Below, piece by piece: positions 17,662-47,227 of a stretch of 64,000 bases of DNA. The stretch covers positions 3,602-67,601 of the forward strand of contig JAAETI010000355.1 of the NCBI GenBank assembly GCA_024228555.1, in the 5' to 3' direction. Source of the stretch: a bacterium (lineage in GTDB: Bacteria > Actinomycetota > Acidimicrobiia > Spongiisociales > UBA5794). The notes under the pieces were generated by a model. That model saw only the letters and a list, made by a program, of their open reading frames with translations. It made no database searches and had not been told where the DNA came from. The translations under genes and the position numbers were made by a program. Numbering within the stretch: position 1 is the stretch's first letter; each line of letters begins with the position of its first letter.

Positions 17662-17735
17662 CTCTATTGCCTTTCTCGTCTTGAGGTGGGAGGGCCCATG
17701 GCCCTCCCACCTCGGAGTTACTTGCTAGTCGGGGC

Positions 17736-18827: not shown

Positions 18828-18867
18828 TATTTGAGTTTCCTCCTTGTATTTCCCGCAAAGCGGAAAT

Positions 18868-21841: not shown

Positions 21842-24421
21842 ATGTCTGAAACCACGTCTTTCTCTGTTAACGGACGTGACGTCCAGGTGCGGAGCGATCA
21901 TCCCCATCTGCTGTCAGCTTTGCGCGAAGAAGTAGGGGTTACGTCACCAAAGGACGGTTGCTCCCCTTCGGGTCAATGTGGTGCATGCACTGTATTGCTG
22001 GACGGCAAGGCAATCCAGAGTTGTCTCGTCAATATGGAGAAGGCCTCGGGCAAGACCGTCACAACGCTCGAGGGCTTTGATCCTGACGAACGTGACCGTC
22101 TTTCAAAGGTCTTTGCAGTAACCGGCGCCTTGCAGTGCGGTTTCTGTACTCCCGGCATCTTGGTTCGCACCAAGGCGCTGTTTGATCAGAAAGGCCCGGC
22201 TGGGGTCACTTCGCAGGTGGCCGCGGGTCGCCTCGGTGCGCACCTCTGCCGTTGCACCGGGTACACCAAGATTCTCGAAGCCGTTGAGATGTTGGCAACG
22301 GGCAATATCCCCGAACCGGCCACCCCGCAGCGGATCGGCGATAACGGTGCCAAGTACGAAGGCGTCGAACTGGCGCTCGGTGATCGTGGTTATGTCGACG
22401 ACATGTACCCGGATGGGATGTTGCACGGGGCATTGCGGATGACGGATCACTCCCGCGCTGACATCATCAAGATCGACACATCTGCTGCTGAGGCAGCCGA
22501 AGGTGTCGTCGGTGTGTTCACCGGAGCTGATGTTCCCGGCGAACTCAAGGTGGGGATCATCTACACCGACTGGCCGGTCTTCATCCCCGAGGACGGCCGT
22601 ACCTCGTACTACGGCGATGTCCTGGCCATCGTTGTGGCGGAGACCAAGGCACAAGCGCGCGCCGCCGCCGAGCTTGTCGAGGTTGAGTACAACGTGCTGA
22701 AGCCATTTGCCGATGCGAAGTCGGCTTTGGCTTCTGACGAGGACGCGGTGTGGGGTCTCGACGGCAACGTTCTGTCGACCTCCAAGTACAAGAGGGGAGA
22801 TGTTGACGAAGCGCTCGCGGGTTCTGCACATACCCTGCACGAGGTGTTCAAGACACAGCGCGTCGAGCATGCATTCCTGGAGCCTGAGTCGACGCTTGCT
22901 GTGCCCGACGGCAACGGCAATCTCATGGTCTACTCCGGCGGTCAAGGTGTGTGGGATGATCGCAACCAGATCGCCTCGCTCCTCGGTATCGAGCAGAGCG
23001 CGGTAACGGTCGAACTTGTTTCCAACGGCGGTGCCTTCGGTGGCAAAGAGGACATGTCGAACCAGGGGCAGACGGCTCTTGCCGCCCATCTGCTCGGGCG
23101 ACCGGTCAAGTGCACTCTGTCTCGCGAGGAGTCATTCCGCATTCACGCCAAGCGGCACCCGATCGAGATCGAGGTCTGGGCGGGTTGCGATGCTGACGGC
23201 AAGCTAACCGGTCTTCGGTCGCGGATGATTGGCGATTCCGGCCCGTACGCTTCCGTCGGGATGAAGGTGTTGGAGCGTGCCGCCGGTCACATGTGCGGCC
23301 CGTATGTGTGGGAGACCGTCGATGTCGAAGCGATCGCGGTCCGCACCAACAACCCGGTGTGTGGCGCCTTCCGTGGCTTTGGTGCCAACCAGGCTCAGTT
23401 TGCGATGGAAGGGATCATGGATCGTCTTGCCAGTGCCGTCGGGATCAGCGGGTGGGAAATGCGTTCCCGCAACGTCATCAGCCCCGGGGTGGTGTGGGGT
23501 CCCGGTCAGATCATGGACGACGGCAGCCGTGGCGCCAGGGAATGTCTTGATGCAGTCAAGCCTGCGTACGACCAAGCGCGCGCCGATGGCAAGGCTGTCG
23601 GTATAGGGCTTGGCCTCAAGAACTCGGGTCTTGGCAACGGCTTCCTGGAGATCTCCAAGGCTGTCGTTCGATTTGAGGATGATGGGACTGTCGAGGTGCG
23701 GCATTGCTGGACCGAGATGGGTCAAGGTGTGCACACGGTCGCCCTCCAGGTAGCTGCGGAAGAGCTCAATATCGATGCCGACCGCATCCGGGTTGTGGTT
23801 GACACCACCCGGGAACTCGGAGCGGGACAGACCACAGGTTCCCGTGGCACTTTGATGGTTGCCGGCGGTGTCGCCGACGCGTGCCGGGTTGCCAATGAGC
23901 ACAACCAGGCGCCTGGGGTTGATTATGAAGGCGAGTATCGGGTCGATTGGACCAACGCTCTCGAAGAGGAAGTGGAGAATCCAATTCTGCACTCGGCATT
24001 CGGGTATGCATGTCAGGTCGTTGTCGCCGACAAGGGCACCGGCAAGTTCGACAAGGTGATCGCGGCTCACGACGTGGGCCGCGCCGTCAACCCGATGCTG
24101 GTCGTCGGTCAGGTCGAAGGCGCCGTGCACATGGGTCTTGGATATGCCCTCACTGAGGAGTTCCCGACCGACGACGATGCTCGGCCCACAAACTGGACCT
24201 TGCGTAGCCTGGGGATCCTGCGGGCGAAGGACATGCCGGAGGTGGAAACCATCCTCGTTGAGGTCCCGCAACCTCGTGCTCCCTATGGTGTCAAAGGTGT
24301 CGGAGAAATCGGACTGGTGCCAACTGCAGGCGCGGTTGCCGGAGCCTTCTATGAGGTCGATGGCAAGCGCCGCACTCAGGTGCCGTTCAACATTCATCAG
24401 CCTCTGGAGGTAGCGAAGTGA
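21842..24421 (+). CDS. molybdenum hydroxylase, fused [2Fe-2S] + molybdopterin-binding subunit (XdhD-like)
   Basis: N-terminal ferredoxin with all 8 Cys (CSPSGQCGAC...SC; QCGFCTPG; CRCTGY). Followed by a xanthine dehydrogenase-family MoCo domain (GGAFGGK, GVKGVGEIG). No FAD domain is present. Confidence 0.9.
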   Translation: MSETTSFSVNGRDVQVRSDHPHLLSALREEVGVTSPKDGCSPSGQCGACTVLLDGKAIQSCLVNMEKASGKTVTTLEGFDPDERDRLSKVFAVTGALQCGFCTPGILVRTKALFDQKGPAGVTSQVAAGRLGAHLCRCTGYTKILEAVEMLATGNIPEPATPQRIGDNGAKYEGVELALGDRGYVDDMYPDGMLHGALRMTDHSRADIIKIDTSAAEAAEGVVGVFTGADVPGELKVGIIYTDWPVFIPEDGRTSYYGDVLAIVVAETKAQARAAAELVEVEYNVLKPFADAKSALASDEDAVWGLDGNVLSTSKYKRGDVDEALAGSAHTLHEVFKTQRVEHAFLEPESTLAVPDGNGNLMVYSGGQGVWDDRNQIASLLGIEQSAVTVELVSNGGAFGGKEDMSNQGQTALAAHLLGRPVKCTLSREESFRIHAKRHPIEIEVWAGCDADGKLTGLRSRMIGDSGPYASVGMKVLERAAGHMCGPYVWETVDVEAIAVRTNNPVCGAFRGFGANQAQFAMEGIMDRLASAVGISGWEMRSRNVISPGVVWGPGQIMDDGSRGARECLDAVKPAYDQARADGKAVGIGLGLKNSGLGNGFLEISKAVVRFEDDGTVEVRHCWTEMGQGVHTVALQVAAEELNIDADRIRVVVDTTRELGAGQTTGSRGTLMVAGGVADACRVANEHNQAPGVDYEGEYRVDWTNALEEEVENPILHSAFGYACQVVVADKGTGKFDKVIAAHDVGRAVNPMLVVGQVEGAVHMGLGYALTEEFPTDDDARPTNWTLRSLGILRAKDMPEVETILVEVPQPRAPYGVKGVGEIGLVPTAGAVAGAFYEVDGKRRTQVPFNIHQPLEVAK

Positions 24422-25522: not shown

Positions 25523-29095
<3,573 letters not shown>

Positions 29096-29658: not shown

Positions 29659-30141
29659 GTGACAACCGATACCAAGAACGACGTACCCAACAGCGAATCT
29701 GAGGGTGAGGACGAGAAGTCCTTCTTTGCTCGCGGCGTCCTGCTGGGTCTCTTCGGCGGCGCTCTTGCCGCGATTCTGGTGATCAGCATCTTCGCATCGG
29801 TTCTTTCGTTGGTCGACGACGTTTTTGGGTCTTCCACCGCGGCGGTGGCCGATTCCAACGAGCCTCCTACCGGTGAAGCCTCGCTCATCGCCACCGGTGA
29901 GGACCTGGCTACGACCAAAGGTTGCGTTGGGTGCCACTCGACCGACGGGCTGGACGGTGTCGGGCCGACATGGAGTGGTCTTGGGGCCACCACCGATGAC
30001 GACTACATCCGGCTCTCCATCACCGACCCCAATGCGGATATCGCGGCAGGGTTTGCGCCCGACTTGATGCCGGCGATTTATGCCGACACGCTGAGCAGCG
30101 ACGACCTTGACGCCCTTGTTGCCTACATCGGGTCTCTCTAG
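29659..30141 (+). CDS. membrane-anchored c-type cytochrome
   Basis: Haem-binding CVGCH motif, an N-terminal TM helix and a class I cytochrome c-like C-terminus. Confidence 0.75.
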   Translation: MTTDTKNDVPNSESEGEDEKSFFARGVLLGLFGGALAAILVISIFASVLSLVDDVFGSSTAAVADSNEPPTGEASLIATGEDLATTKGCVGCHSTDGLDGVGPTWSGLGATTDDDYIRLSITDPNADIAAGFAPDLMPAIYADTLSSDDLDALVAYIGSL

Positions 30142-30633: not shown

Positions 30634-31821
30634 CTAGCCCGATCCAACAACGAGCGAGACGCCACCTTCATCCAGGATTGTTTCGGCGCGTTCAGTGATC
30701 GTGCCGTCGTGCACCCTGTGATAGAGATTCTCGCCGGGGCAGGACGTTGCCGCGTGATCGCGGTGACCCGAGATGGTGTCGATGGGCACGTCAAAGGTTG
30801 TGGATGCCCAGGCGACCATCTGTGCCAGAGTCTCGAGTTGCTGTGGTGAAGGGATGTCAGAGTTGTAGTCTCCCTCGACGACGATGAGGAAGTGCCCGTG
30901 CGGGTCGTATTCCGTTGCGGTGTCTCCGGCAGCCCAATCCGGTCGACCTTCGAAGACCGTGCCGTCCCTTCCGACGATGAAATGGTAGGCGACGTCCGGC
31001 CATCCAAGAGACTGGTGCCAGCCTTGCCAGATGCGATATAGCGCCGGCCCCGTCGTGCTGGTGGTGTCGTCGCTGTGGTGGATGGTTATCTGCTGGATCG
31101 AATGTGGGCGCAGGCCGTCTGCCGCCGGCTTTGCCCCCCAACTCTCGCGGGAGACCACGTCGACGGTGTAGGGATGGGGTAGAACCTCGATCTCTTCCAG
31201 ATCGAGGGCGCGAGCGACGAACGTTGCCATCTCGGCTCGGGTGACGGCGCTGGTCGGGCAGAACCGGTCGTTGCTTGGCGGGTTGCAGCCATTGGTGATT
31301 CCGGCCGCACGCAGCTTCTCAATGTCTGCCTCGAACAGAGACTCGTTGTCGTCAACGAAGCTGTCCGCGGTGGCTTCCACCAGACCGAGGCCTCTGCTGA
31401 GGAACGCCGCCATCTGTTCCCTACTCACGGCTTCGTTGGGACAGAATCGTGTATTGGCAGGCGGATTGCATCCGACAGTGATCTGAGCGGCAGCAAGTCG
31501 ATCGATGTCGTCGGCGAATATCGACGTTGTGGTGTCCGTGAATCCGGCCGCCGCGGCGCTCGGCAACTCGAGAGCCCGAACCAGGAATGCAGCCATTTCG
31601 CCGCGAGTCACAGAGTTGGTGGGGCAGAAGCGGGTGTTCAACGGAGGATTGCAGCCCTGAGTAATGCCGGAGGCCGCGATTGCCTCGATGGACCCTTCGT
31701 GGATGCTGGTGTCATCGTCAGCAAACGTCCCGCCAGGCGAGGTATCGGCTACCCCAATCGCGAGTGGGCTCAGCGCGGTAAGGATCATGGCCGTAGCGGT
31801 GAATCGGATGAGGGTACGCAC
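30634..31821 (-). CDS. secreted N-acetylmuramoyl-L-alanine amidase (PGRP/Amidase_2) with three SLH-like Cys-containing repeats
   Basis: Signal peptide, then three ~50-aa repeats of the form F.DD..S.H...I..L...GIT.GCNPP.N.RFCP...VTR.EMAAFL.RAL. The C-terminal Amidase_2 domain has the Zn ligands H...H...C. Confidence 0.85.
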   Translation of the reverse strand: MRTLIRFTATAMILTALSPLAIGVADTSPGGTFADDDTSIHEGSIEAIAASGITQGCNPPLNTRFCPTNSVTRGEMAAFLVRALELPSAAAAGFTDTTTSIFADDIDRLAAAQITVGCNPPANTRFCPNEAVSREQMAAFLSRGLGLVEATADSFVDDNESLFEADIEKLRAAGITNGCNPPSNDRFCPTSAVTRAEMATFVARALDLEEIEVLPHPYTVDVVSRESWGAKPAADGLRPHSIQQITIHHSDDTTSTTGPALYRIWQGWHQSLGWPDVAYHFIVGRDGTVFEGRPDWAAGDTATEYDPHGHFLIVVEGDYNSDIPSPQQLETLAQMVAWASTTFDVPIDTISGHRDHAATSCPGENLYHRVHDGTITERAETILDEGGVSLVVGSG

Positions 31822-31866
31822 GGCGCTGATGGTAGGTCTTTGCCCGGATTGACGTTTTCTGGGTCG

Positions 31867-32706
31867 ATGAGAACGCGAAAAACAGGCGTAAAGGTAGTCC
31901 CCGGAGCTGCCGATAATGGGGGGGTGACTCCAGAGGAACGCGCTGTCGAAGAGGCAAGCGCTCAGAAGGAATTCTCGATAGTCCGGAAGGGATACGACCC
32001 GGCCGAGGTGGATGCTCAGTTGGCCGAGTACGACGAAGCCCTATCCGAGCTCGAGGAGTATGTCGCGCGCCTAGGTCGAGAACTCCAGGATGCCCGGCGC
32101 GAAATCGCCCGCATGAAGGCAGCTGAGAAAGACGCCGTCGAGAAGGCAATGGCTGCCGTATTTGATGCAAAGGAACGCATCATCGATCGCGCCGTGGCCA
32201 AGGCGAAGGAGATCGAAAACCAGGCTCTCACCACGGCAGGCCGACCGACGGTTGAGCTTCCAGCTATCGCCATACCCGACCTGGTCGAAACACCATCGGC
32301 TTCCGCTGACTCTGCAACTGGCGTGGGACCAGACGATGTCCTCCAACAGATGCTCACCGAGGCAGCGACAATCCGCACCCGATTGGACCTTGGCCTCGCC
32401 GCCGCCTTTGACCAGATGGAGCAGATGCAGCAGGACGCCGAACAGCGCGCTTCGAGCATGCTGGATGAAGCCAAGCGGGAATCGGAGAGACTTCGTGCCA
32501 CCGCTGCGGTGACGGCCGCCGAGACGATCATCGAGGTCCAGTTGCCTGGTGAAGCGCCCCCGCCTCAGGACCGGCCCCGACAGTCCCGATATTCGCGCAA
32601 CTCAGCTGGCTTGCCGCGGATCGGGGAAGACGGAGAGGCGTCCGTCATCGAGACCATGAAGGGTCTCCGCACCAAGTTCCGCGAGAGCGAAGAAGCAGCT
32701 CGGTAG
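31867..32706 (+). CDS. DivIVA-domain protein
   Basis: FSIVRKGYDPAEVDAQLAEYDE DivIVA N-terminal motif followed by a coiled-coil. The start is ambiguous (ATG 31867 or GTG 31924). Confidence 0.7.
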   Translation: MRTRKTGVKVVPGAADNGGVTPEERAVEEASAQKEFSIVRKGYDPAEVDAQLAEYDEALSELEEYVARLGRELQDARREIARMKAAEKDAVEKAMAAVFDAKERIIDRAVAKAKEIENQALTTAGRPTVELPAIAIPDLVETPSASADSATGVGPDDVLQQMLTEAATIRTRLDLGLAAAFDQMEQMQQDAEQRASSMLDEAKRESERLRATAAVTAAETIIEVQLPGEAPPPQDRPRQSRYSRNSAGLPRIGEDGEASVIETMKGLRTKFRESEEAAR

Positions 32707-32947: not shown

Positions 32948-33667
32948 CTAGCCCGCTACCGGCACAGTGACGACGGTCACGTCGGGGGCGAGTAGACCGA
33001 CTGCATCAGTCACGGATCTTGCCGCCTGCTGATCTGCCGTCGAATTGGCCTTGGTCAATCCAATGAACACCCGGCTCCCCGCAGGGCAGGCCCGCAATGC
33101 GCCCTCGGGGTGCACCAGGATTGCAGCACAGTCAGCCGGGGTCAGAATGTGGTTCGAGTCGAGCCCCGTAAACCGCACCGCCTCTTCGATTCGATGGGTG
33201 ACCTCGCCGAGGGGTTGTCCCACGGCCTCGATTCCTACGAGGATCACAACGACCGTCGACAGCGATGGAATGACCGGCTCGTGTGCCGCGGGTGCCTTGA
33301 GCGGACGACCACGAGATCCATCGGCCTCGACAACGATGTAGTCGATCTTGGGTTCCTTGAACAGGTCGTCCACGACATCTGGGGGCGGCCCCGTTACCTT
33401 GTGATCATCGCCACCGGTGATGATCATTACCGGTCCTGGCTTGTCGAGAGCTTCGATCACATAGCGAGTGTCTGCCGACCGGCAGATAGTTTCTACCACC
33501 GTTGTTTGGTCTCTGCCCATCTTCGTGGTTGTCGTGAGAACAATCCGCTTCCCCGCCGCGGTCAGTTCATCGCCAAGCCTAAAGAGCATCGTCGACTTGC
33601 CGCCGCCACCGACCAGCGAGATGAGTTCGCGGTCACCAAGACCGAGGAGACCGGCTAGATCTGTCAT
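32948..33667 (-). CDS. selenium-dependent hydroxylase accessory protein YqeC family (P-loop)
   Basis: LISLVGGGGKSTMLFRLGDEL...RIVLTTTTKMG matches the YqeC (TIGR03172-type) pattern as I recall it. Confidence 0.7.
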   Translation of the reverse strand: MTDLAGLLGLGDRELISLVGGGGKSTMLFRLGDELTAAGKRIVLTTTTKMGRDQTTVVETICRSADTRYVIEALDKPGPVMIITGGDDHKVTGPPPDVVDDLFKEPKIDYIVVEADGSRGRPLKAPAAHEPVIPSLSTVVVILVGIEAVGQPLGEVTHRIEEAVRFTGLDSNHILTPADCAAILVHPEGALRACPAGSRVFIGLTKANSTADQQAARSVTDAVGLLAPDVTVVTVPVAG

Positions 33668-33670
33668 CTG

Positions 33671-34471
33671 CTAGCGATTCCCCAGCCAGGTGAGGGTCGC
33701 TTCGACGACACCGCCACCGATCGACAGCGCCTTGTCGGAAATCTCAAAGCATGCCGAGGAGTCGGCACGGGGATCAATATCGGCAAGCTTCCAATCCCAC
33801 TCGACCTCGTAGCCGGGGGCCAGCAGACCGCGCACGACACCCCCGATGCGTGACCTGATGGGGACCCCGTTGATATCGCCGAGCACGTCGCCTGCCGCAA
33901 CCATATCGGCGATCCCGACCTTCCAAGTGAGGATCCCGAATGTGGGTGCCCGCACGACGCGTTCGCTGGTCTTGCCCCCGATGACACCGGGCTCGCCGGT
34001 GTTTGCCGTGGCTTCACCGTCCCAGATCACCCGGCCCAGATAGTGGCCGCGCATGGTTTCGACAACAGCGTGACAGTCGGTGCCGGCGTTGAAGCCCGGG
34101 CCTAGTCCGATTACGAGTGGAGCGTCGTTGATGTTTGTGTCGATATTGCGTTTGGCAATCCTGGCGTCGACCACCACCGATGGCTCCCAGGGCAGTTGTA
34201 GCAGTGTTGGGCTGACAAGCACGGGGATGGCCCCCGACTTGGCGATCTCGAGCGCCTCATCGATATCGTCGACCCGGATCGCATCTAGGTCCTCGATCAG
34301 AGCGCGCTCCTCGATCACCGCAGCCGCCACCGAGACCGTGCGTCTGATTGCCAAGGGTTGTGCTAGTTCCAGCACCAGCACAGGGAACCCCGCACGGCGT
34401 AGCCGGTAGATCGTTCCTGTCGCCAAATCGCCGCCGCCCCTGACTACGACGAGGTGATCCTGGAAGAGCAT
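33671..34471 (-). CDS. selenium-dependent molybdenum hydroxylase system protein, YqeB family
   Basis: VVVRGGGDLATGTIYRLRRAGFPVLVLELAQPLAIRRTVS matches the YqeB/EF2563-family pattern. Its start overlaps the xdhC stop. Confidence 0.65.
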   Translation of the reverse strand: MLFQDHLVVVRGGGDLATGTIYRLRRAGFPVLVLELAQPLAIRRTVSVAAAVIEERALIEDLDAIRVDDIDEALEIAKSGAIPVLVSPTLLQLPWEPSVVVDARIAKRNIDTNINDAPLVIGLGPGFNAGTDCHAVVETMRGHYLGRVIWDGEATANTGEPGVIGGKTSERVVRAPTFGILTWKVGIADMVAAGDVLGDINGVPIRSRIGGVVRGLLAPGYEVEWDWKLADIDPRADSSACFEISDKALSIGGGVVEATLTWLGNR

Positions 34472-35262
34472 CAGTCGGCTTCCGATCTGTTCTTGCGAAT
34501 GACTTCGGAGAGGATCGATACTGCGATCTCCTCCAGAGTTTCGGCATTGAGTTCGATCCCGATTGGCACGTGGATCCTGTCGAGGTCCTCAGCCGTGATG
34601 TCGCCGGCTACCAGCTGTTCCTTTGTCGAACGCCACCGGGTGCGGCTACCCATGACACCGATGTACCGCGCTGGTGTTTCGAGCAACTCGGGGAGGATGC
34701 GGACATCCACCTCGGGGCTGCGCGTCACAACGATCACTGAAGTGTTCTCGGTAATCGGGTATTTGGCGATGGCGTCACTGACCGTCCCTGCGAAGCGAGA
34801 GTCGGCGTTGGGCATTGCCTCTTCGCTGACAAGATCGGGGCGATCGTCGACCGCAATTGTGCGATAGCCCAGCCAGTGGGCAAGATCGACAACGGTACGG
34901 CCGACATGACCGCAGCCGATTACGTAGACGGTGTGTGGTGGCATGTATGGCTCCAGGTATAGCGTGAGTTCGCCGCCGCAGATCCCAGGGTCGCCCTCTT
35001 TCGGATTGACCAATTCGTATTCGACAAGACGGGAGCGGCCCTCGGTTATTGTCTCGAGTGCCGTGGCGATCACCGTGGCCTCCATCTGTCCGCCGCCCAC
35101 AGTTCCCGTGGTTTCGCCGTCGCCGAAGACCAACATCTTGGTACCGGCATGGCGGGGCACCGACCGGCGGGTAGCGACGATCGTGGCCAAGACCACAGGA
35201 CGGTCGGCCTCGATGGCTGCATTGAGTTTGCGCAGGATCAGCGCATTGTCCGCAGCACTCAT
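34471..35262 (-). CDS. XdhC/CoxI family molybdenum cofactor insertion chaperone
   Basis: XdhC N-terminal domain plus XdhC Rossmann domain (VYVIGCGHVGRTVVDLAHWLGYRTIAVDDR). Confidence 0.85.
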   Translation of the reverse strand: MSAADNALILRKLNAAIEADRPVVLATIVATRRSVPRHAGTKMLVFGDGETTGTVGGGQMEATVIATALETITEGRSRLVEYELVNPKEGDPGICGGELTLYLEPYMPPHTVYVIGCGHVGRTVVDLAHWLGYRTIAVDDRPDLVSEEAMPNADSRFAGTVSDAIAKYPITENTSVIVVTRSPEVDVRILPELLETPARYIGVMGSRTRWRSTKEQLVAGDITAEDLDRIHVPIGIELNAETLEEIAVSILSEVIRKNRSEAD

Positions 35263-35265
35263 CTT

Positions 35266-38178
35266 CTAGCCCGATTGCATCGCCCGCCACACCCGTTCCG
35301 GGGTGAACGGGAGGTTGTCTATCTGTGTTCCGGTTGCGTTGAAGATGGCGTTGCGGATGGCGGGTGCCACACCGTCCTTGGGGATCTCTGCGATTGCTTT
35401 CGCACCGAACGGACCCGACTTCTCCATCGTCTGCACCATGTAGGCCTCGATCTGGGGCATCTCGTCTGCCCTGTAGATCTTGTACGGCCCAAAGCGGGCA
35501 TTGACCATGTTGCCTTCATCATCGAGGGCCATCTCCTCGCAGTGCCCGTAACCCAGCGCCTGCACCATGCCGCCTTCAACCTGGCCTGCCGATGTCAACG
35601 GGTTGATCGGGACACCGCAGTCGACAGCCATCACCAGGTTGTTGACGGTCACCTGGCCGGTGTCGATGTCGACCTCGATCTCCGCAAACTGGGCCGCATA
35701 TGGTGGTGGCGAGTCGGGGGCAACGTACGAAGCGGTCGCCATGATCTGGTGCTGATCGTCTTGATGCAGCGAGTGCAGCGCAACTTCAGCGAGGGTTACG
35801 GAACGGCCATCGGGGGCAAAGGCCGCCTTCTCCTTGAGCTCAATGTCGCCAGGCGAGTCGACGTCGAGCATGATCGCTGCCCTGGTGACGATCTGGCGAT
35901 GAACCTCGTCGGCCGCCTTCTTGACGGCCATGCCCGACACGTAGGTCGTCGAGGAGGCGTAGGCACCGACATCGAACGGTGTCATGTCGGTGTCGGCTGC
36001 GTAGACGACGATCTCTTCGGTCGGCACGCCGAGCACCTCGGCTGCCATCTGCGCCAGGATCGTGTCGGCCCCTGTGCCCAGGTCGGTGGCACCCATCAAC
36101 AGGTTGAACGAACCGTCATCGTTGATCTTGATGCTGGCTCCACCCATGTCGAGCCCAGAGATGGCGCTGCCGTGCATGCACATCGCAAACCCGAGACCAC
36201 GCCGGATGTTGGGTCGATCCGCCGGTTGTACCCAAGCGGGGTCGTTGCGACGGTGCCAGGCGACGGCACGCTGACCTTGCACGACACACTCGTCCATGCC
36301 GCTGGAGGTCACTACGGGGACGAACTTCATGTCGGCGGCGCCTTCACCCAATTCGGCTGCCACGTCGAGAGGGTCACCGACCTTGGTCCAGTTCTTGCGA
36401 CGGAACTCGAGAACATCCATACCCAGTTCGGTAGCGATGTCATCCATGTGCGATTCGAGAGCAAACAACGCTTGCGGAGCCCCGTAGCCGCGGTAGGCGC
36501 CGGCCACCGGAGTGTTGGTGTAGGCAACGTCGCAATCGAACTTCTTGTTGGGGCAGTTGTAGGTGCTGAGGCCGCGCAGACCGCTCACCATCTGCACCGT
36601 CAGCGAGTGCGTTCCATACGGGCCAGTGTTGCCGACCGTGCGCATACGTTGTGCGACCAGGGTGCCGTCGTTGCTGACGCCGGTGGTGAAAGTGATCGTC
36701 TGCGGATGACGAGTTCGGCTCGAGACGAACTCCTCTTGCCTGTTGAGTTCCATACGGACCGGCTTGCCGGTAGCAATGGCCAGGTGGCCGACGATGTCCT
36801 CGATCAACATCTCCTGCTTCACGCCAAAGCCACCGCCGATGCGGGGCTTGACGATACGAATGTCGCGAACCGGCATTCCGAGCAGTGGAGCGACCATGCG
36901 ACGCACGTGGAAGGGAACCTGCGTAGAGGTCCTGATGACCATTCGCTCGTCGCTGTCCAGCCAGGCAATGGCGATGTGCGGCTCGATGGGTGCTTGCTGC
37001 ACCTGATGAACCCTGAAGACCCGTTCGAAGACTCGATCAGCGGCGGCGAGACCGGCTTCAATGTCGCCGACCTCAGCGTCGATGTGAGTGACGATGTTGC
37101 GGGCCGGGTCGTGGGCACCTTCCATCTCGTCTTCGTCGTGGATGATCGGAGCGTTCCCTGAGATGGCCTCGTTCTCGTCGAAGACCGCTGGCAGCACCTC
37201 GTACTCGACTTCGATCAGCTTGACTGCTGCTTCGGCGATTTCGATGCTATCGGCGGCGACAACGGCGACCCGATCACCGACATGGCGAACCTTGTTGTCG
37301 AAGCTCACCTGGTCGTAGGGGAGCGGGTTCGGGTAGCTCTGTCCACCCGAGGCGTAGCGGATCCTGGCAACGTTCTCGTGATGCAGGACGGCTTTCACAC
37401 CGGGAAGGGAGCGTGCCTTGGAGTCGTCGATTGCGACGATGCGGGCGTGGGCGTGCGGGCTGTAGAGCATCTTGGCGTAGAGCATCCCCCGCATCTCGAT
37501 GTCATCGACGAAGGCTGGGTTTCCCTTAGCGAGCTTCACCGCATCGACCTTGCGTTCGGGCTTCCCAACGACATTGGTCTCGGGGACCTCGGGGCTGGGA
37601 ACGACACGTGGTGCCAACGGATCGAGGTTCAGCGCCGGATTGGCTGCTGACATATCCGGCGTCCCTCCGAGTGCCACCAGCGGCTCCACTATGGCGGGTT
37701 CAACCGGTTCCGGCTTCTCGCCCCGCAGCATGGCGGCAGCCCGCAACACGGCGTGAACAGGGCGCAGATAACCGGTCTCCCTGTCCAGGATCCCGGAGAG
37801 GGCATCGCGGACCTCAGCCTCGGTGGGGTTCGGATTGGAGTCGATCAGCGCCTTGGCGGCGAGGATGGTTGCAGGCGTTGAGTAACCCGACTGGATAGCT
37901 CCGCTGGACACAAACGCTTCTTGGATGGGGTGCAAGCCGCGGGGTAGATTTAGGCCCTCGAGTGTCTCGACTGCGTGCCCATCGGCTTGTGCCGCCAGCA
38001 TCACCTCAGATGAGACAAGACGACCGTCGAGCAGGATCGCATCGGCTCCGGTCTCGCCGGTTTCGGCACCGAAGCGGACGCTGAAGAACCCCTCACGACG
38101 CAGCACTGCACGGAGTGACTCGTGTGGCTGGCATTCATAGGTGCGCTGGTCCCCGTTGACGGTGAGGTTGATGTTCAT
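35266..38178 (-). CDS. molybdenum hydroxylase MoCo subunit fused to a cysteine-less (degenerate) [2Fe-2S] ferredoxin-like domain
   Basis: The MoCo domain is intact (GGGFGVKQE, GAKAIAEIP). In the N-terminal Fer2/Fer2_2-like region every Fe-S ligand Cys is replaced. GADA replaces CGAC, SGYSTPA replaces CGFCTPG, and LDRETGY replaces LCRCTGY. Confidence 0.9.
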   Translation of the reverse strand: MNINLTVNGDQRTYECQPHESLRAVLRREGFFSVRFGAETGETGADAILLDGRLVSSEVMLAAQADGHAVETLEGLNLPRGLHPIQEAFVSSGAIQSGYSTPATILAAKALIDSNPNPTEAEVRDALSGILDRETGYLRPVHAVLRAAAMLRGEKPEPVEPAIVEPLVALGGTPDMSAANPALNLDPLAPRVVPSPEVPETNVVGKPERKVDAVKLAKGNPAFVDDIEMRGMLYAKMLYSPHAHARIVAIDDSKARSLPGVKAVLHHENVARIRYASGGQSYPNPLPYDQVSFDNKVRHVGDRVAVVAADSIEIAEAAVKLIEVEYEVLPAVFDENEAISGNAPIIHDEDEMEGAHDPARNIVTHIDAEVGDIEAGLAAADRVFERVFRVHQVQQAPIEPHIAIAWLDSDERMVIRTSTQVPFHVRRMVAPLLGMPVRDIRIVKPRIGGGFGVKQEMLIEDIVGHLAIATGKPVRMELNRQEEFVSSRTRHPQTITFTTGVSNDGTLVAQRMRTVGNTGPYGTHSLTVQMVSGLRGLSTYNCPNKKFDCDVAYTNTPVAGAYRGYGAPQALFALESHMDDIATELGMDVLEFRRKNWTKVGDPLDVAAELGEGAADMKFVPVVTSSGMDECVVQGQRAVAWHRRNDPAWVQPADRPNIRRGLGFAMCMHGSAISGLDMGGASIKINDDGSFNLLMGATDLGTGADTILAQMAAEVLGVPTEEIVVYAADTDMTPFDVGAYASSTTYVSGMAVKKAADEVHRQIVTRAAIMLDVDSPGDIELKEKAAFAPDGRSVTLAEVALHSLHQDDQHQIMATASYVAPDSPPPYAAQFAEIEVDIDTGQVTVNNLVMAVDCGVPINPLTSAGQVEGGMVQALGYGHCEEMALDDEGNMVNARFGPYKIYRADEMPQIEAYMVQTMEKSGPFGAKAIAEIPKDGVAPAIRNAIFNATGTQIDNLPFTPERVWRAMQSG

Positions 38179-38918
38179 GCGGAACCTCCGAGTTGGTCGG
38201 CGACTCGTCTGACGAGCACCTCGGCGAGCTGTCGGCGGTATTCGCTCGTTCCGCGGAAGTCGGCTGGCGGGTCGAGCGATGAGACACTGTCGACACTGAC
38301 GAGAACTGGAGTCGCGGCCACTCCGGTCAGGGCGATACGAAGACCGGTGGCGACGATACGGCCGGCGGCTGCCACGATCGACGTGTCGGCGGGCGTCCTT
38401 CCCGTGCGCTCGGCAGCGGTCGCGCCACCAATAGCAACGGTGACCGTCGTGACTACCGCCCTATCAAGCACCGAGAAGTCGGCGAGAAGATCTTCGAGAG
38501 CGAGGTCACGGGATCCCGACGAATCGGCAACGGTCACCAGAGCTTCGTGGACGAGAAGCCCAGCGAGAAGCTCGCTTTCCGGGTCGCCTTCGGCAACGGT
38601 CCCGCCGACGGTAGAAACGTTGCGCAGTGTGTTGGGACCCTCCCGCTTGGCAAGGGCGGTCAGCAGAGGCGGGGTGTCGTCGTGATCGATGAGGTCCTGA
38701 AGCCGTGTCATGGCGCCGAAGCCGACGCGGTCACCATCACGGGAAATGCCCGCAGCGACAGCTGCTTGCAGGTCAACCACCTCGGTATTGGCAGGGAGAT
38801 CGGTGGTGTTCACCGCGGTGCCTCCAGCGAGAACTGTCGTGGTGACATCGGTTCTTGCAAGCAATACGATCGCCTCGTCGAGCGTTGCGGGCCGGTGGTA
38901 CGAACTGATGCGATTCAT
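38175..38918 (-). CDS. molybdenum hydroxylase FAD-binding subunit (CoxM/YgfM-like)
   Basis: FAD_binding_5-like motifs LAGGTAV...STVGGTVA. The gene is first in the operon and overlaps the next gene by 4 nt. Confidence 0.8.
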   Translation of the reverse strand: MNRISSYHRPATLDEAIVLLARTDVTTTVLAGGTAVNTTDLPANTEVVDLQAAVAAGISRDGDRVGFGAMTRLQDLIDHDDTPPLLTALAKREGPNTLRNVSTVGGTVAEGDPESELLAGLLVHEALVTVADSSGSRDLALEDLLADFSVLDRAVVTTVTVAIGGATAAERTGRTPADTSIVAAAGRIVATGLRIALTGVAATPVLVSVDSVSSLDPPADFRGTSEYRRQLAEVLVRRVADQLGGSA

Positions 38919-39091
38919 GTGAGTTTCTCCGCTGCTCGACTGGTGTATCCAGGATAGTTGGTGGGATCTCGGTGCATTCCAAGTACAGCCGGATTCGCCT
39001 ATCCCTCGATATTTCTGATTCCCATTGGGAAGTTACGATCGGCTTGCTTCAGGTTCTCGTCCCGACGGCCATCAACTCCACTCGCCGGTCA

Positions 39092-39289
39092 GTGTGCATC
39101 GGCGATGACGGGTTCCTTCTGGTCACCGATCGGCTCAAGGACATCATCATCGAGTCGTTTGCTCCTCTGGATCGTGAGTTCTCGCAAGAGGACAGCAAGA
39201 TCACACCGACACAGAAGATCCGTCGCCGCTTCGTGGAGCAGAGCTTTGCTGACGAGACCGATGCGGTGTACGCCACCGCAGGCACGTGA
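39092..39289 (+). pseudogene. remnant of long-chain acyl-CoA synthetase (FadD) C-terminus
   Basis: DDGFLLVTDRLKDIIIES joins directly to EFSQEDSKITPTQKIRRRFVEQSFADETDAVYA. This has the typical FadD C-terminal residues, but the central ~80 aa are missing and there is no N-terminal body. Confidence 0.5.
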
Positions 39290-39308
39290 ACCGCCTATCT
39301 TGCGACCC

Positions 39309-39890
39309 ATGATTGGTGGCATTGTCCTTGCGGCCGGCCTATCAGAGAGGATGGTCGGCGACGTACCCAAGCAGCTCTTGCCGCTTGGTGATGTCCCGAT
39401 TGTGGCCGTCACCGTTGGCCACGCCGAGGCGTCATCCCTTGACCAGGTTGTGGTTGTCACCGGTCACCGCGGCGCCGAGGTGGCGGCGGCCGTGTCCGAT
39501 AGTCGAGCGATCGTGGTCGCGAACCCCGATTACCGCCAAGGGAACATGACCTCGTTCCGTGCTGGTTTTTTGGCGCAGGCCGAATGCGATGCCTATGTGA
39601 TTCTTCTTGCAGACATGCCAACGGTGACTAGCGAGATGATCAATCGCTTTGTCGACCTGTGGACTCACGCCCGTCCGTGGGCGGCGGTAGCCCGATACCG
39701 GGAGGGGCCTGCTCATCCATTGCTTCTGTCTGCAGATGCGATTGCGGAGGCGATTGCGATGGAGGGGGCCAAAGGTGTGTGGCGCTTTCTCGCCGCGGCT
39801 CCTGCAGATCAAGTGGCTGAGGTTCTGTTCGACCAGGCAACGCCGCCCGACATCAACACCGTCGAGGACTACGAGCGAGTCACGCCCTAG
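39309..39890 (+). CDS. mocA: MocA-type molybdenum cofactor cytidylyltransferase (nucleotidyltransferase family)
   Basis: MIGGIVLAAGLSERMVGDVPKQLLPLGDVPIV MobA-like fold. It is encoded divergently from the hydroxylase operon. Confidence 0.8.
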   Translation: MIGGIVLAAGLSERMVGDVPKQLLPLGDVPIVAVTVGHAEASSLDQVVVVTGHRGAEVAAAVSDSRAIVVANPDYRQGNMTSFRAGFLAQAECDAYVILLADMPTVTSEMINRFVDLWTHARPWAAVARYREGPAHPLLLSADAIAEAIAMEGAKGVWRFLAAAPADQVAEVLFDQATPPDINTVEDYERVTP

Positions 39891-43530: not shown

Positions 43531-44484
43531 CTATCTCTGTTCGCGGAAGTACGGTATACCCAGCGCCGCAGGGGCTCCGAGGAACCGGGCGCGTTTGCCA
43601 CTGGTGAGCACGATCATGGCAACGATGGCAAGGACGAACGGCAGCATCGCCAGCAAGCTGGACGGGATGTTGCTCCACGGTTCGCCGAGGGTTTGCAACG
43701 TGAAGCCAATCCGCTCCGCCGCACCAAACAGGTAGGCGGCGAATAGGGCTCGCCACGGCCGCCAGCTCGCCAGGATCACGAGGGAGATGGCAATCCAGCC
43801 GGCTGGCCCGATCGGCTCGTTCTGCCAGGTTGGGACCAAAGCCAGCGAGTAGTAGGCGCCACCAAGACCGGCCAATGCCCCACCGACCATGATGTGCACG
43901 TAGCGAATTCGTGCGACATTCACCCCGGCCGACTCAGCGCTGGCCGGGTCTTCGCCCACGGCGCGAAGCGACAGTCCCATCCGGGTGCGGAAGAGGTAGA
44001 AGCTCGCAGCCGCCACCGTCAACCAAGAGACATAGACGAGGATGTCGTGGCCAAAGATCAGTGGACCGATAACGGGGATGTCGGCAAGGCCGCCTTCGAG
44101 GATTGGCTCGAAGGTCGCCTTTGAAGGCTCACCAACCAGGGGCTCTGCACCGGCCTCGCCGAGGAAGCTCGACAAGCCGGCTCCGAAGATTGTCAAAGCC
44201 AGCCCGGAGACGATCTGGCTGACTCGGAGCGTGACCGAGGCGAAAGCGTGGATCATGGAGAAGCCAGCCCCGGCGATCATCGCAACGATTACCCCAAGCA
44301 GCAGACTTTCGGTGTTGTACGTTGCCCAGAAACCAGCGACGGCGCCGACAAGCATCATGCCCTGGACCCCAAGGTTGAGGTTGCCCGCCCGTTCGGTGAT
44401 GATTTCTCCGACGGTGGCATAGACGATGCCGGTACCCAGCCCCATGGCCGCAAACAGTGTGAGGATCAGCGTTGACTCGTTCAT
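43531..44484 (-). CDS. ABC transporter permease (BMP/nucleoside type)
   Basis: Multi-TM protein with a 4-nt overlap with the upstream permease. Confidence 0.85.
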   Translation of the reverse strand: MNESTLILTLFAAMGLGTGIVYATVGEIITERAGNLNLGVQGMMLVGAVAGFWATYNTESLLLGVIVAMIAGAGFSMIHAFASVTLRVSQIVSGLALTIFGAGLSSFLGEAGAEPLVGEPSKATFEPILEGGLADIPVIGPLIFGHDILVYVSWLTVAAASFYLFRTRMGLSLRAVGEDPASAESAGVNVARIRYVHIMVGGALAGLGGAYYSLALVPTWQNEPIGPAGWIAISLVILASWRPWRALFAAYLFGAAERIGFTLQTLGEPWSNIPSSLLAMLPFVLAIVAMIVLTSGKRARFLGAPAALGIPYFREQR

Positions 44485-45596
44485 GCTTCAACCCCCTCGG
44501 CTCCGGGAGACATAGACGGTTTCTTCTCCGGCTTGCGTACTCGATTGGCGATGAAGAACTCACCGGCAACAGCAAAGATAAGGATGGCGCCCTGGAGCAT
44601 GGTGACGGTGGACGCCGGCACCCGGATGGACTGAAGAGAGGGGCCGGCGTTGTTGAGCGCACCCATCAAGATGCCGACCGGGATGACTGCGATCGGATTG
44701 AGCCGGGCCAACGCGGCAACGATGATCCCGGTGAAGCCAAGGCCCAGATCCAGCGATCGAGGGTCGAGCGCTCCTACCGGTCCGGCAACATAGAGAGAAC
44801 CGGCGAGACCGGCGAAGGCTCCGGACATCAGGAAGACTCCGAGGAACTTTCGGGGAACCGCGATGCCGGCGTAGCGAGCAGTATCGGCCGAGTCACCGAC
44901 GATACGAACCTCGAATCCCCACTTCGTCTTGCTGATCAGGAACCAGGCGAGGATGGCGAGGAGCACGGCCACGACGAAACCCCAGTCGAGGCGATTGAAG
45001 AATTCGGGGATACGCGAGCTGTCGGGCAGCGGACGCCCGGTTGGGAATTGACTGACCTCTGGATCACGCCACGGGCTCTCGCTACCAAAGATCAAATAGT
45101 TCATGAAGTTGAGGGCTATGAAGTTGAGCATCAGGGTTGTGATGATCTCGTTCGTGCCGAGATACACCTTGGGCACTGCCGAAACCGATGCCCAGAAGGC
45201 GCCGCCGATTCCACCGGCGATGATCACCAGCGGCAGCGCAATCGCCATTGGCGTGCCTGGTCCGAGGGCAATGGCGAGACCTGCCGCAAAGATGGCGCCC
45301 ATGATGAACTGGCCTTCCGCACCGATGTTCCAGACCAGCATCTTGAATGCCACCGCGGCGGCAACACCGGTGAGGATCAGCGGTGTTGCCGAAATCAGAG
45401 TCTCGCTGATACCACGGCTGGAGCCGAACGAGGTCTTGGCCATCTTGGTGTAGACCTCCCACGGGTCGTTACCGGTGAGGGCTAGAAAGATGGCGCCGAC
45501 GATCAGAGCCAGCAGAACGGAAACCAGCGGAACGGCCAGCGTCAGCCGTCCCGAGGCAAGACCTCTCGGTTCAACAATGAGGCGTCGGGCGGTCAT
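44481..45596 (-). CDS. ABC transporter permease (BMP/nucleoside type)
   Basis: Multi-TM protein with a 4-nt overlap with the ATPase gene. Confidence 0.85.
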   Translation of the reverse strand: MTARRLIVEPRGLASGRLTLAVPLVSVLLALIVGAIFLALTGNDPWEVYTKMAKTSFGSSRGISETLISATPLILTGVAAAVAFKMLVWNIGAEGQFIMGAIFAAGLAIALGPGTPMAIALPLVIIAGGIGGAFWASVSAVPKVYLGTNEIITTLMLNFIALNFMNYLIFGSESPWRDPEVSQFPTGRPLPDSSRIPEFFNRLDWGFVVAVLLAILAWFLISKTKWGFEVRIVGDSADTARYAGIAVPRKFLGVFLMSGAFAGLAGSLYVAGPVGALDPRSLDLGLGFTGIIVAALARLNPIAVIPVGILMGALNNAGPSLQSIRVPASTVTMLQGAILIFAVAGEFFIANRVRKPEKKPSMSPGAEGVEA

Positions 45597-47125
45597 GTCG
45601 TTGCCTCCTCTTTTTGACCAGCCATAAGCAGGCCGAGCCGCTCCGGGGTCGCCTCATCAGCGGGCATTTCCCCGGCCACCGTACCCTCGTAGATCACAAT
45701 GACTCGGTCAGAGAGTGCCAGCAGCTCATCGAGATCCTCCGATACGAGCAGCACCGCGGTTCCTTCCGCTCGTTCAGCAAGGATCTGGTTGCGCACCGCC
45801 TCGGTGGCACCAACATCGAGACCACGAGTGGGGGAGCGGGCAATCAAGACCTTCGGGTTCAACTCAACCTCGCGAGCCAGTAGGGCTTTCTGCAGATTGC
45901 CACCGGACAGCAGGCGGATCGGTAGACCGGGTCGTACACCACGGATGTCGTACTTCTCGATCCATTCCTCTCCACGCTCCTTGAAGACGCTGGCGGTGAG
46001 CATGGGACCGTTGGAATAGGGTGGTTTGCGATAGGCCTTGAGGCCGAGGTTCTCCTCGGTGGTGAGGCCCGGAGCCAGCCCCATTCCGAGCCTGCTCTGG
46101 GGGACGTAGGCAACGCCGCGATCGGTGCGGTCGGACACAGACATCTTTGTGACATCCTCGCCGTCCAGTTTGATAGTCCCCGAGGTGGGGATACGAAGCC
46201 CGACAAGACCGTAGGCAAGCTCGCGTTGTCCGTTGCCCGAGACACCGGAAATCCCGAGGACCTCTCCCGATCTGATCGTGAAGGTCATGCCACGGACTGC
46301 TTCGAGACCGCGGTCGCCGTCGACACGTATTGAGTCCACTTCGAGCATTGGGCCACCGATATCTGGGTTCTCTTCCCTTGTGGGTAGCTCGAGATCGCGG
46401 CCAACCATCATTCGGGCAAGGTCGCGTGGCTCGGCATCGGCAGTGTCGGCGCCACCAACTGTGGTGCCGTCGCGCAGCACGGTCACTCGGTCAGACACCT
46501 GCTTGACCTCGTGGAGCTTGTGTGAGACGAAGATCACCGAGCGGCCTTCTTCAGCCATCTGACGCATCGTCTTGAAGAGCTGCTGGGCCTCCTGTGGCGT
46601 CAGCACCGCGGTCGGCTCATCGAGGATCAGAATCTTGGCGTTGCGGTACAGCAGTTTGAGGATCTCAACCCGCTGCTGCTCGCCGACAGACAGCTGCCAA
46701 ATGCGGGCGGCGGGATCGACCGGAAGGCCGTACTCCTCGCCAAGTTCCCGAGCTTCCTCTTCCAGCTGACTCTGAGAGATGGTCACCCCGAGCTTCGGGT
46801 GGCCGAGGGCCAGGTTCTCGGCGACGGTGAGGTTGGAGACCAGGCGGAAGTGCTGATAGACCATGCCGACACCGGCAGCAAGAGCATCCTTTGGCGTCTT
46901 GAAGACCGTTGGCTTGCCTTCGTAGAGGAACTCTCCTGCATCAGGGCGATACAGCCCAGCGAGGATTGAGCACAGCGTCGACTTGCCAGCCCCGTTCTCG
47001 CCAAGAAGAGCATGAACCTCTCCGTGACGTAATTCGAAGTTGACGTTGTCATTGGCTTTTACGCCATAGAACGCCTTGTCGATGTTGCGAAACTCTACTG
47101 CCAGTGTGTCTGCGTGATCGGCCAT
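45593..47125 (-). CDS. ABC transporter ATP-binding protein (duplicated ATPase)
   Basis: GENGAGKSTLCSIL plus a second NBD. Confidence 0.9.
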   Translation of the reverse strand: MADHADTLAVEFRNIDKAFYGVKANDNVNFELRHGEVHALLGENGAGKSTLCSILAGLYRPDAGEFLYEGKPTVFKTPKDALAAGVGMVYQHFRLVSNLTVAENLALGHPKLGVTISQSQLEEEARELGEEYGLPVDPAARIWQLSVGEQQRVEILKLLYRNAKILILDEPTAVLTPQEAQQLFKTMRQMAEEGRSVIFVSHKLHEVKQVSDRVTVLRDGTTVGGADTADAEPRDLARMMVGRDLELPTREENPDIGGPMLEVDSIRVDGDRGLEAVRGMTFTIRSGEVLGISGVSGNGQRELAYGLVGLRIPTSGTIKLDGEDVTKMSVSDRTDRGVAYVPQSRLGMGLAPGLTTEENLGLKAYRKPPYSNGPMLTASVFKERGEEWIEKYDIRGVRPGLPIRLLSGGNLQKALLAREVELNPKVLIARSPTRGLDVGATEAVRNQILAERAEGTAVLLVSEDLDELLALSDRVIVIYEGTVAGEMPADEATPERLGLLMAGQKEEATT

Positions 47126-47227
47126 TGCCGTAGCCTAGCCAGTCGTCTTCCTCGTGGCTCGTTGCGCCCAAAAAGCAAGAAGGGCCCCGCCAGAAGCGGG
47201 GCCCTTCTTCATGTTTGTGTGTATCGA

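Follow-up and report, generated by a model that had tools for sequence, protein, structure and literature searches.

How do electrons pass between flavin and molybdenum, and in the service of which reaction, in an enzyme that has lost the iron-sulphur (Fe-S) clusters lying between them? In the xanthine oxidase family the electron wire consists of the Mo centre, two [2Fe-2S] clusters and flavin adenine dinucleotide (FAD). The question is raised by a locus in a 64,000-nucleotide stretch of DNA from a bacterium assigned to the Acidimicrobiia (contig JAAETI010000355.1, assembly GCA_024228555.1, positions 3,602 to 67,601), which as a whole is called the window below. It contains a five-gene operon and a divergent mocA-like gene at 32948-39890. 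The operon specifies a fused, XdhD-like subunit of 970 amino acids which, compared with a canonical member of the family, possesses the catalytic glutamate of the Mo domain and 0 of the 8 cysteines that hold the Fe-S clusters. We propose, with a probability of about 0.6, that this subunit and its YgfM-like FAD partner constitute an NAD(P)H-linked urate/2,8-dioxopurine oxidoreductase that acquires a selenium-bearing cofactor during maturation.

The operon and its cysteine-less subunit

Five co-directional open reading frames (ORFs), read on the minus strand from 38918 to 32948, code for a YgfM-like FAD subunit, the fused Fe-S-like/Mo subunit, XdhC, YqeB and YqeC. Their junctions are, in order, a 4-nucleotide overlap, a 3-nucleotide gap, a 1-nucleotide overlap and a 3-nucleotide gap, and this tight spacing indicates a single operon; promoter and terminator scans of the operon gave sites no more numerous than in shuffled sequence. 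Gene identities were based upon profile searches with Pfam and NCBIfam/TIGRFAM models at curated cut-offs, and upon pairwise alignment and tblastn searches with Escherichia coli proteins (Table 1). By these searches and by the junctions, the layout is the one given in a preliminary description of this DNA (FAD subunit, molybdenum-cofactor subunit, XdhC, YqeB and YqeC, with a divergent mocA), the MocA-like product scoring under the TIGR03310 cut-off. The assignment of the last two genes to YqeB and YqeC was borne out as well, both passing the trusted cut-offs of their hidden Markov models.

The first two genes, a short FAD-subunit gene followed by one for fused Fe-S-like and Mo domains, have the XdhD/YgfM-type architecture. 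Pfam analysis of the 970 amino acid subunit revealed Fer2_2, Ald_Xan_dh_C (a/b-hammerhead), MoCoBD_1 (271.6 bits) and MoCoBD_2 (244.5 bits) domains, and the protein aligns end to end with E. coli XdhD at 36% identity. The YgfM-like subunit (28% identity to E. coli YgfM) retains the AGGT and TxGG FAD motifs and has a deletion of approximately 28 residues in its C-terminal domain. E. coli YqeB is a 541 amino acid XdhC+YqeB fusion; the window's XdhC-like protein shows 33% identity to its N-terminal half and YqeB 45% to its C-terminal half. The XdhC-like protein is below the cut-off for the NCBIfam equivalogs. YqeC shows 38% identity to its E. coli counterpart.

In an alignment to E. coli XdhC and to the canonical hydroxylase of the window itself, the N-terminal domain of the 970 amino acid subunit has a residue other than cysteine in all eight ligand columns (A, T, D, E / S, S, D, E), and it is predicted to be unable to bind Fe-S clusters. 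The preliminary statement that this domain has lost all cysteines is correct for the eight ligands and slightly overstated otherwise, as the non-ligand Cys16 (codon 38131-38133, motif Y-E-C-Q-P) remains. This sole cysteine is kept in 124 of 129 clade members, and neither E. coli XdhD nor P0121, a metagenomic relative considered below, has an equivalent.

Eighty related loci were found in species-representative genomes, with homologues 66-98% identical to the window protein; the nearest are in Acidimicrobiia metagenome-assembled genomes (MAGs), followed by Anaerolineae and other Chloroflexota. Since the ligand set is missing in all 80 loci (five have a single cysteine at one position), the loss is not a sequencing artefact. 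The residues which replace the ligand cysteines are conserved among the 80 homologues. Mean identity to the window protein across 79 homologues is 72.5% for the N-terminal domain and 78.8% for the Mo domain, with the linker far below either. The N-terminal domain is under purifying selection. An AlphaFold2 model of the subunit (pLDDT, the predicted local distance difference test score, 73; pTM, the predicted template-modelling score, 0.75) had its lowest confidence where the loop of cluster 1 used to be. From end to end it can be superimposed on the Desulfovibrio (D. gigas) aldehyde oxidoreductases, themselves Fe-S/Mo fusions, with template-modelling scores of 0.73-0.79, and therefore the fold and domain arrangement appear to be retained.

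Two lost cofactor sites and low model confidence in the cofactor-binding loops are also what a decaying or non-catalytic pseudo-enzyme would present, its cysteines having gone under relaxed selection. We consider this very improbable. The relic domain is nearly as well conserved as the Mo domain, down to the replacement residues; the catalytic glutamate (equivalent to bovine E1261) and the Mo-site motifs are invariant; a dedicated maturation operon is retained; and neither a ratio of nonsynonymous to synonymous substitution near 1 nor frequent frameshifts or stops in the orthologues were seen.

Origin of the cysteine loss

E. coli XdhD also lacks all eight Fe-S cysteines, suggesting that the cysteine-less domain might be one inherited trait of the XdhD/YgfN family. 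This was ruled out by a search of representative proteins and by trees of both the Mo and the N-terminal domains. HMMER, run exhaustively against 1.84 billion cluster representatives, provided 150 relatives, and the Mo-domain tree was constructed from a 730-column alignment by neighbour-joining (not maximum likelihood) with 200 bootstraps. Of 44 relatives with a fused N-terminal domain, 36 retain all eight cysteines; zero cysteines were found only in the window cluster and in proteins of the E. coli XdhD type (P0137, P0163).

In the Mo-domain tree the window clade groups with P0121, a fused protein of 942 amino acids with eight cysteines, in 197 of 200 bootstraps, and with P0121 plus the unfused P0123 in 193. 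As the window clade is sister to a cysteine-bearing protein, the loss in the Acidimicrobiia/Chloroflexota cluster is separate from that in the E. coli lineage. The N-terminal domain agrees: once the eight ligand columns are masked, its identity is 54-55% to cysteine-bearing P0121 and P0126 and 33% to E. coli XdhD, and a tree of the masked domain brought all cysteine-less sequences together in 1 of 200 replicates. The cysteine-less state of the window clade arose INDEPENDENTLY of the E. coli case, and on these alignments strict orthology of the window protein to XdhD does not hold. The same masked-column identities exclude a domain swap that would have brought in the N-terminal part from an XdhD-type gene.

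The sister operons form a series from three separate genes (FAD, Fe-S and Mo) through fusion to cysteine loss. P0123 is preceded by separate genes for a FAD subunit (276 amino acids) and a Fer2/Fer2_2 protein (155 amino acids), the latter carrying its eight cysteines. P0121 and P0124 are each preceded by a FAD-subunit gene with the 4-nucleotide overlap seen in the window. In P0124 (locus L086:1479-4310, FAD subunit of 270 amino acids) D, G, D, G stand in place of the cysteines of cluster 1, and cluster 2 retains its four. Metagenomic P0121 and P0123 share with the window their gene order, their active-site residues (including the insertion described below), 57.5% and 52.9% identity, respectively, in the Mo domain and 54% in the N-terminal domain. 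They differ in keeping all eight cysteines and in having no adjacent XdhC, YqeB or YqeC gene on their contigs, which, like that of P0124, are short.

A mirror image is offered by P0126 and P0128 (locus L087:2348-5281), fused proteins of 977-980 amino acids, preceded by a 321 amino acid FAD subunit, in which all eight cysteines are intact and the Mo site is degenerate (GGGFG altered to GSAGGR/SGDAAR, the bovine R880 equivalent to C/Y and the catalytic glutamate to T/N). Their N-terminal domain is the nearest of all to that of the window (55%). Nature thus provides a series comprising the canonical three-gene P0123, the fused P0121, the half-lost P0124, the fully lost window clade and E. coli XdhD, and the mirror-image P0126/P0128. 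The gene content of the locus was already known; what seems to be new is the independent, selected loss of both clusters and this natural series of intermediates. We found no paper in the open-access literature that notes the absent Fe-S ligands of XdhD, which is absence of evidence.

Proposed function and electron path

The preliminary description considered the configuration undescribed. This could not be upheld, since E. coli K-12 contains the same set, with yqeB, yqeC, mocA, ygfK, ssnA, ygfM and xdhD side by side, and the neighbourhood was tabulated when the accessory markers of the selenium-dependent molybdenum hydroxylases (SDMHs) were defined (Haft & Self 2008; PMC2276186). Its suggestion that the function differs from that of canonical xanthine dehydrogenases agrees with what has been reported for E. 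coli, where this enzyme type is reductive: XdhD-YgfM, with NADH, converts urate to 2,8-dioxopurine (PMC12507026). A reductive uric acid pathway was worked out from this cluster in 2025 by two groups (PMC12507026; bioRxiv 10.1101/2025.04.24.650524; PMC12990295). In Clostridium sporogenes urate is converted to 2,8-dioxopurine by DOPDH/XdhAC (2,8-dioxopurine dehydrogenase), which is Fe-S-containing, FAD-less and SelD-dependent (bioRxiv 10.1101/2025.04.24.650524). YgfK, the 2,8-dioxopurine reductase of both organisms, then acts on this product, and SsnA opens the ring (PMC12507026; bioRxiv 10.1101/2025.04.24.650524; PMC12990295).

The window contains homologs for these steps. Genes for a second Mo hydroxylase (859 amino acids, all eight cysteines intact), an SsnA-like amidohydrolase and YgfK lie on the plus strand approximately 10 kb upstream of the operon, in the same apparent operon as one another; they had been overlooked in the preliminary description. 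The SsnA-like protein shows 34% identity to the 442 amino acid E. coli SsnA, of which it lacks the first 55 or so residues and several internal segments. That this short form is a pseudogene was ruled out by its HxH motif, its alignment to the E. coli C-terminus and its 77-80% conservation in the sister loci. Sister genomes have ssnA-ygfK immediately next to ygfM-xdhD-xdhC-yqeB-yqeC in divergent orientation, and at locus L046 a hyuA homolog follows yqeC. The Anaerolineae locus L049 has an enzyme of the same clade among YgeY (375 bits, cut-off 321), a D-hydantoinase (481 bits, cut-off 393), a YgeW-like carbamoyltransferase, an SsnA-like amidohydrolase and an F420 LLM reductase; this is the form of the cluster that Li et al. 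describe from Chloroflexota, and these authors had already noted SsnA-centred uricolytic clusters in Actinomycetota and Chloroflexota (Li et al. 2025). The pathway has been presented as a feature of gut anaerobes; its upper half, together with an in-operon set for selenium and Mo-cofactor maturation, is widespread in environmental Acidimicrobiia and Chloroflexota.

From this arrangement we propose the following scheme. MocA would make the molybdopterin cytosine dinucleotide (MCD) form of the molybdenum cofactor, which the XdhC-like chaperone would insert into the 970 amino acid subunit, and YqeB and YqeC would install a labile selenium ligand. The 247 amino acid YgfM-like subunit is predicted to bind FAD, with the relic N-terminal domain probably serving as a scaffold between it and the Mo domain. 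By analogy with E. coli XdhD-YgfM, the enzyme would interconvert urate and 2,8-dioxopurine with NAD(P)H, and together with YgfK, SsnA and the second hydroxylase it would make up the upper part of reductive (2,8-dioxopurine) uric acid and purine degradation. The substrate, the dependence on NAD(P)H and the presence of selenium are here what we infer.

Likeness to E. coli XdhD-YgfM extends from gene arrangement to active site. Both have a FAD-subunit gene overlapping the start of the fused-subunit gene, the same accessory genes, YgfK and an SsnA or SsnA-like protein, and both lack the eight cysteines. They differ in that XdhC and YqeB are separate genes in the window, the maturation genes belong to the operon of the enzyme and the downstream uricolytic genes are not adjacent; moreover, identity is 36-39%, under the TIGR03313/TIGR03312 cut-offs, and the two are not sister lineages. 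E612 of the window protein is the equivalent of E. coli E606, the glutamate singled out by Li et al. (2025) as specific to XdhD, and lies in an LGEG insertion present in 16 of 140 relatives. E. coli XdhA is not among the 16; the window clade, the E. coli XdhD clade, P0121, P0123, P0124 and P0127 are. The equivalent of E802, a glutamate in xanthine dehydrogenases, is glutamine in the window protein as in E. coli XdhD.

4-Hydroxybenzoyl-CoA reductase is the classic reductive dehydroxylase of the xanthine oxidase family; it possesses two [2Fe-2S] clusters and an extra [4Fe-4S] cluster in its FAD subunit, so more electron-transfer cofactors, not none. Its alpha subunit (Thauera aromatica, PDB 1RM6) is the nearest solved relative by sequence of the XdhD-like Mo part (331 bits), although it acts on another substrate. 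The SDMHs of purinolytic clostridia and the Eubacterium barkeri nicotinate dehydrogenase (PDB 3HRD) have in common with the window the YqeB/YqeC markers and a Mo subunit of the same family, but they retain their Fe-S clusters, and the XdhD-like Mo domain is closer to 4-hydroxybenzoyl-CoA reductase or aldehyde oxidoreductase than to 3HRD (218 bits). No solved structure of the XdhD or TIGR03311 type was present in the copy of the PDB that we searched.

YqeB and YqeC, adjacent in the window, are SDMH markers (Haft & Self 2008; Zhang et al. 2008), that is, markers of selenium use and not proof of it; in Clostridioides difficile a clear phenotype was obtained from yqeB only (PMC11448449). At two sister loci, L012 (16244-17311, plus strand) and L031 (around 16220), whose XdhD-like proteins are 89% identical to that of the window, SelD is encoded 1.8 kb beyond yqeB (TIGR00476, 362 bits, cut-off 125); no YqeC match was obtained at these two loci. 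An in-frame UGA stands at the position of Cys17 of E. coli SelD ('HGAG*ACK' against 'HGAGCGCK'), from which it follows that the lineage uses selenium and selenocysteine.

Several observations weigh against the proposed function. The top NCBIfam match of the 970 amino acid subunit, TIGR03313, scored 699.1 bits against a cut-off of 1101.9, the YgfM-like subunit scored 69.9 bits with TIGR03312 (cut-off 241.5), and an exclusive grouping of the window clade with the E. coli XdhD clade (39% identical) was obtained in 0 of 200 bootstraps. Since these cut-offs failed and the two are not monophyletic, the assignment of function is based on context and active-site features and not on orthology. Within the window, tblastn gave no match to hyuA, ygeW (YgeW/UacY), ygeX, ygeY or yqeA, nor, with E. 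coli SelD as query, to selD at E<=1e-5; the absence of selD had already been stated in the preliminary description. It has also been doubted that E. coli makes SDMHs (PMC11448449). The window clade has a conserved arginine at the R880 equivalent, where the E. coli XdhD clade has glutamine, and the two may therefore differ in how they handle substrate. The second hydroxylase, placed beside ssnA and ygfK and bearing the clostridial DOPDH signature, could be the urate reductase instead. Finally, in bovine xanthine dehydrogenase the two clusters span roughly 25-30 A between FAD and Mo, beyond single-step tunnelling, and a simple FAD-to-Mo path is therefore physically problematic.

The second hydroxylase is the basis of an alternative in which roles are exchanged: the 859 amino acid enzyme would reduce urate as in clostridia, and the cysteine-less enzyme would carry out another step, such as oxidation of hypoxanthine or xanthine or of another N-heterocycle. 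C. sporogenes DOPDH, which occupies the pathway step proposed here, is linked to YgfK, SsnA, YqeB/YqeC and SelD, but with its intact Fe-S domains, absence of a FAD subunit and lack of NAD(H) use it resembles the 859 amino acid protein rather than the cysteine-less one. The resemblance includes a threonine at the A1078 equivalent, as reported for DOPDH by Liu et al. (bioRxiv 10.1101/2025.04.24.650524), and a Mo domain whose best solved relative is the selenium-dependent nicotinate dehydrogenase 3HRD; in addition, the cysteine-less protein has, at the R880 equivalent, the arginine of true xanthine dehydrogenases, unlike E. coli XdhD. Against this, in the Chloroflexota loci the XdhD-like clade supplies the sole hydroxylase within 10 kb of the uricolytic genes, the window protein has the rare E606-bearing insertion in common with E. 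coli XdhD, and its E802 equivalent is not the glutamate of xanthine dehydrogenases. An exchange of roles strikes us as rather unlikely, and we retain the cysteine-less enzyme as the candidate urate/2,8-dioxopurine oxidoreductase.

A selenate reductase is suggested by the older annotation of YgfK/YgfM/YgfN ('putative selenate reductase molybdopterin-binding subunit'), which survives in the JGI names of many homologs and in the TIGRFAM-era names of Haft & Self 2008 (PMC2276186). There is very little to be said for it today: Liu et al. reported that selenate is neither needed by YgfK nor stimulates it (bioRxiv 10.1101/2025.04.24.650524), the E. coli proteins have defined purine substrates (PMC12507026; PMC12990295), and the context in the window and the sister loci is one of purine and ureide catabolism.

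Electrons would have to pass from FAD to Mo without the two clusters. Perhaps there is no internal wire: the donor would be an external protein acting at or near the Mo/pterin site (YgfK, the second hydroxylase or the membrane-anchored cytochrome c whose gene follows ygfK), or the reaction would be a redox-neutral, transhydroxylase-like ping-pong, with the FAD subunit structural or regulatory. Two independent losses of the clusters beside an intact Mo site are hard to fit to a FAD to Fe-S to Fe-S to Mo relay, and the half-lost P0124 and the gene for a CVGCH cytochrome c after ygfK, kept in seven sister loci, likewise speak for such an arrangement. On the other side, E. coli XdhD co-purified with a protein of approximately 30 kDa reportedly turned urate into 2,8-dioxopurine with NADH, and an E. 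coli delta-xdhA mutant consumes no xanthine, which argues against XdhD using xanthine as the reductant of a ping-pong cycle (PMC12507026). The FAD-binding motifs are conserved in all YgfM-like subunits. We therefore regard an enzyme without an internal wire as improbable and return to the NAD(P)H-linked enzyme.

The very enzyme which is reported to start the pathway in E. coli has no such wire, and the window clade has lost it in a second, independent event. It is tempting, if doubtful, to conclude from at least two losses of both [2Fe-2S] clusters (in enterobacterial XdhD and in the Acidimicrobiia/Chloroflexota), with Mo site, FAD subunit and selenium maturation genes kept, that electrons are delivered in a manner unknown in this family. 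If so, candidate routes would be a large movement of domains that carries FAD to the pterin, reduction directly by an external partner such as YgfK or a cytochrome c, or chemistry of a selenium-bearing Mo centre that needs no one-electron relay. The same question applies to E. coli XdhD: is transfer relay-free there, and is this linked to the reductive direction or to the selenium ligand?

Divergent region, source and neighbouring genes

Table 1. Features of the window, with positions, strand and the matches or reasoning behind each assignment
Feature	Position	Strand	Basis
Second Mo hydroxylase, 859 aa, fused Fe-S/Mo without FAD subunit, selenium-dependent xanthine dehydrogenase/DOPDH-like	21842..24421	+	TIGR03311 806 bits (cut-off 830, just under)
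SsnA-like amidohydrolase, compact, 340 aa	24418..25440	+	NF005540 260 bits, TIGR03314 248 bits (cut-offs 444-455, both below)
YgfK, Fe-S flavoprotein	25523..29095	+	TIGR03315 916.4 bits (cut-off 835.3)
YqeC, putative selenium-cofactor accessory protein, last gene of operon	32948..33667	-	TIGR03172 173.2 bits (cut-off 73.05); PF19842 137.7 bits
YqeB, putative selenium-dependent Mo-cofactor maturation protein	33671..34471	-	TIGR03309 323.5 bits (cut-off 220)
XdhC-family molybdenum-cofactor insertion chaperone	34471..35262	-	PF02625 (XdhC_CoxI) 87.5 bits; PF13478 (XdhC_C) 125.3 bits, both pass
XdhD-like fused subunit, 970 aa: cysteine-less double [2Fe-2S]-like domain, linker, Mo-cofactor domain	35266..38178	-	Pfam
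N-terminal domain of the fused subunit, residues 1-150, relic of two [2Fe-2S] sites	37729..38178	-	Alignments, 0/8 ligand cysteines
YgfM-like short FAD-binding subunit, 247 aa, first gene of operon	38175..38918	-	PF00941 (FAD_binding_5) 71 bits
Divergent intergenic region between ygfM-like and mocA-like genes, presumed promoter-bearing	38919..39311	.	Start-site reasoning
MocA-like molybdenum cofactor cytidylyltransferase	39312..39890 (longest ORF from 38958)	+	PF12804 112 bits; TIGR03310 125.5 bits

The MocA-like ORF passes the Pfam NTP_transf_3 model and falls short of the TIGR03310 cut-off of 186.45 bits; its identity to E. coli MocA, taken across the full length, is 29%. The similarity sets in at the ATG at 39312, and contig JAAEOG010000774.1 is publicly annotated with a protein of 193 amino acids. 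Judged from these alignments, that ATG is almost certainly the true start, rather than 38958, and this would leave approximately 390 bp of divergent intergenic DNA. No Rfam riboswitch or RNA match was obtained in this region at gathering or E<=1 thresholds, and its promoter signal was not above the shuffled background. A 105 amino acid ORF within it (38972-39289, plus strand), publicly annotated as "hypothetical", has no family match and an atypical composition and is probably non-coding.

The source was thought in the preliminary description to be probably actinobacterial, and the relatives of the 970 amino acid subunit at 75-98% identity, in Acidimicrobiia MAGs, bear this out. An identical protein occurs in NCBI assembly GCA_024223445.1, on contig JAAEOG010000774.1, which is 45 kb in length and falls within the span of the window. 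The GC content of the window is approximately 61%, and it contains no tRNA genes.

Downstream of ygfK, a plus-strand gene at 29659-30141 codes for a 160 amino acid membrane-anchored monohaem cytochrome c with a CVGCH motif and an N-terminal hydrophobic helix. This gene order is kept in seven of the closest sister loci (L002, L004-L007, L013, L019), and the protein is either a possible redox partner or unrelated to the enzyme. Small ORFs lying between the purine gene sets were considered as pathway genes and ruled out on their identities (GNAT, SLH-amidase and DivIVA-like). The last two are an SLH-domain N-acetylmuramoyl-L-alanine amidase (30634-31821, minus strand), whose synteny is kept in several sister loci, and a DivIVA-like protein (31699-32706, plus strand). 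SLH domains are unusual in Actinomycetota.

The region is flanked by two complete ABC uptake systems of the Bmp/PnrA type (16135-21005 and 43531-48349, both on the minus strand), each with a binding protein, a double ATPase and two permeases; they are plausible nucleoside or purine importers. At two sister loci (L046:4279-6926 and L062:628-3233) a third hydroxylase, comprising a small Fe-S-like ORF and a Mo subunit 33-38% identical to the window proteins, is found by a mocA-like gene. Further along the window, at 54997-57952 on the minus strand, there is a trio coding for a MoxR AAA+ ATPase, a DUF58 protein and a VWA/BatA-type protein, unrelated to the purine genes.

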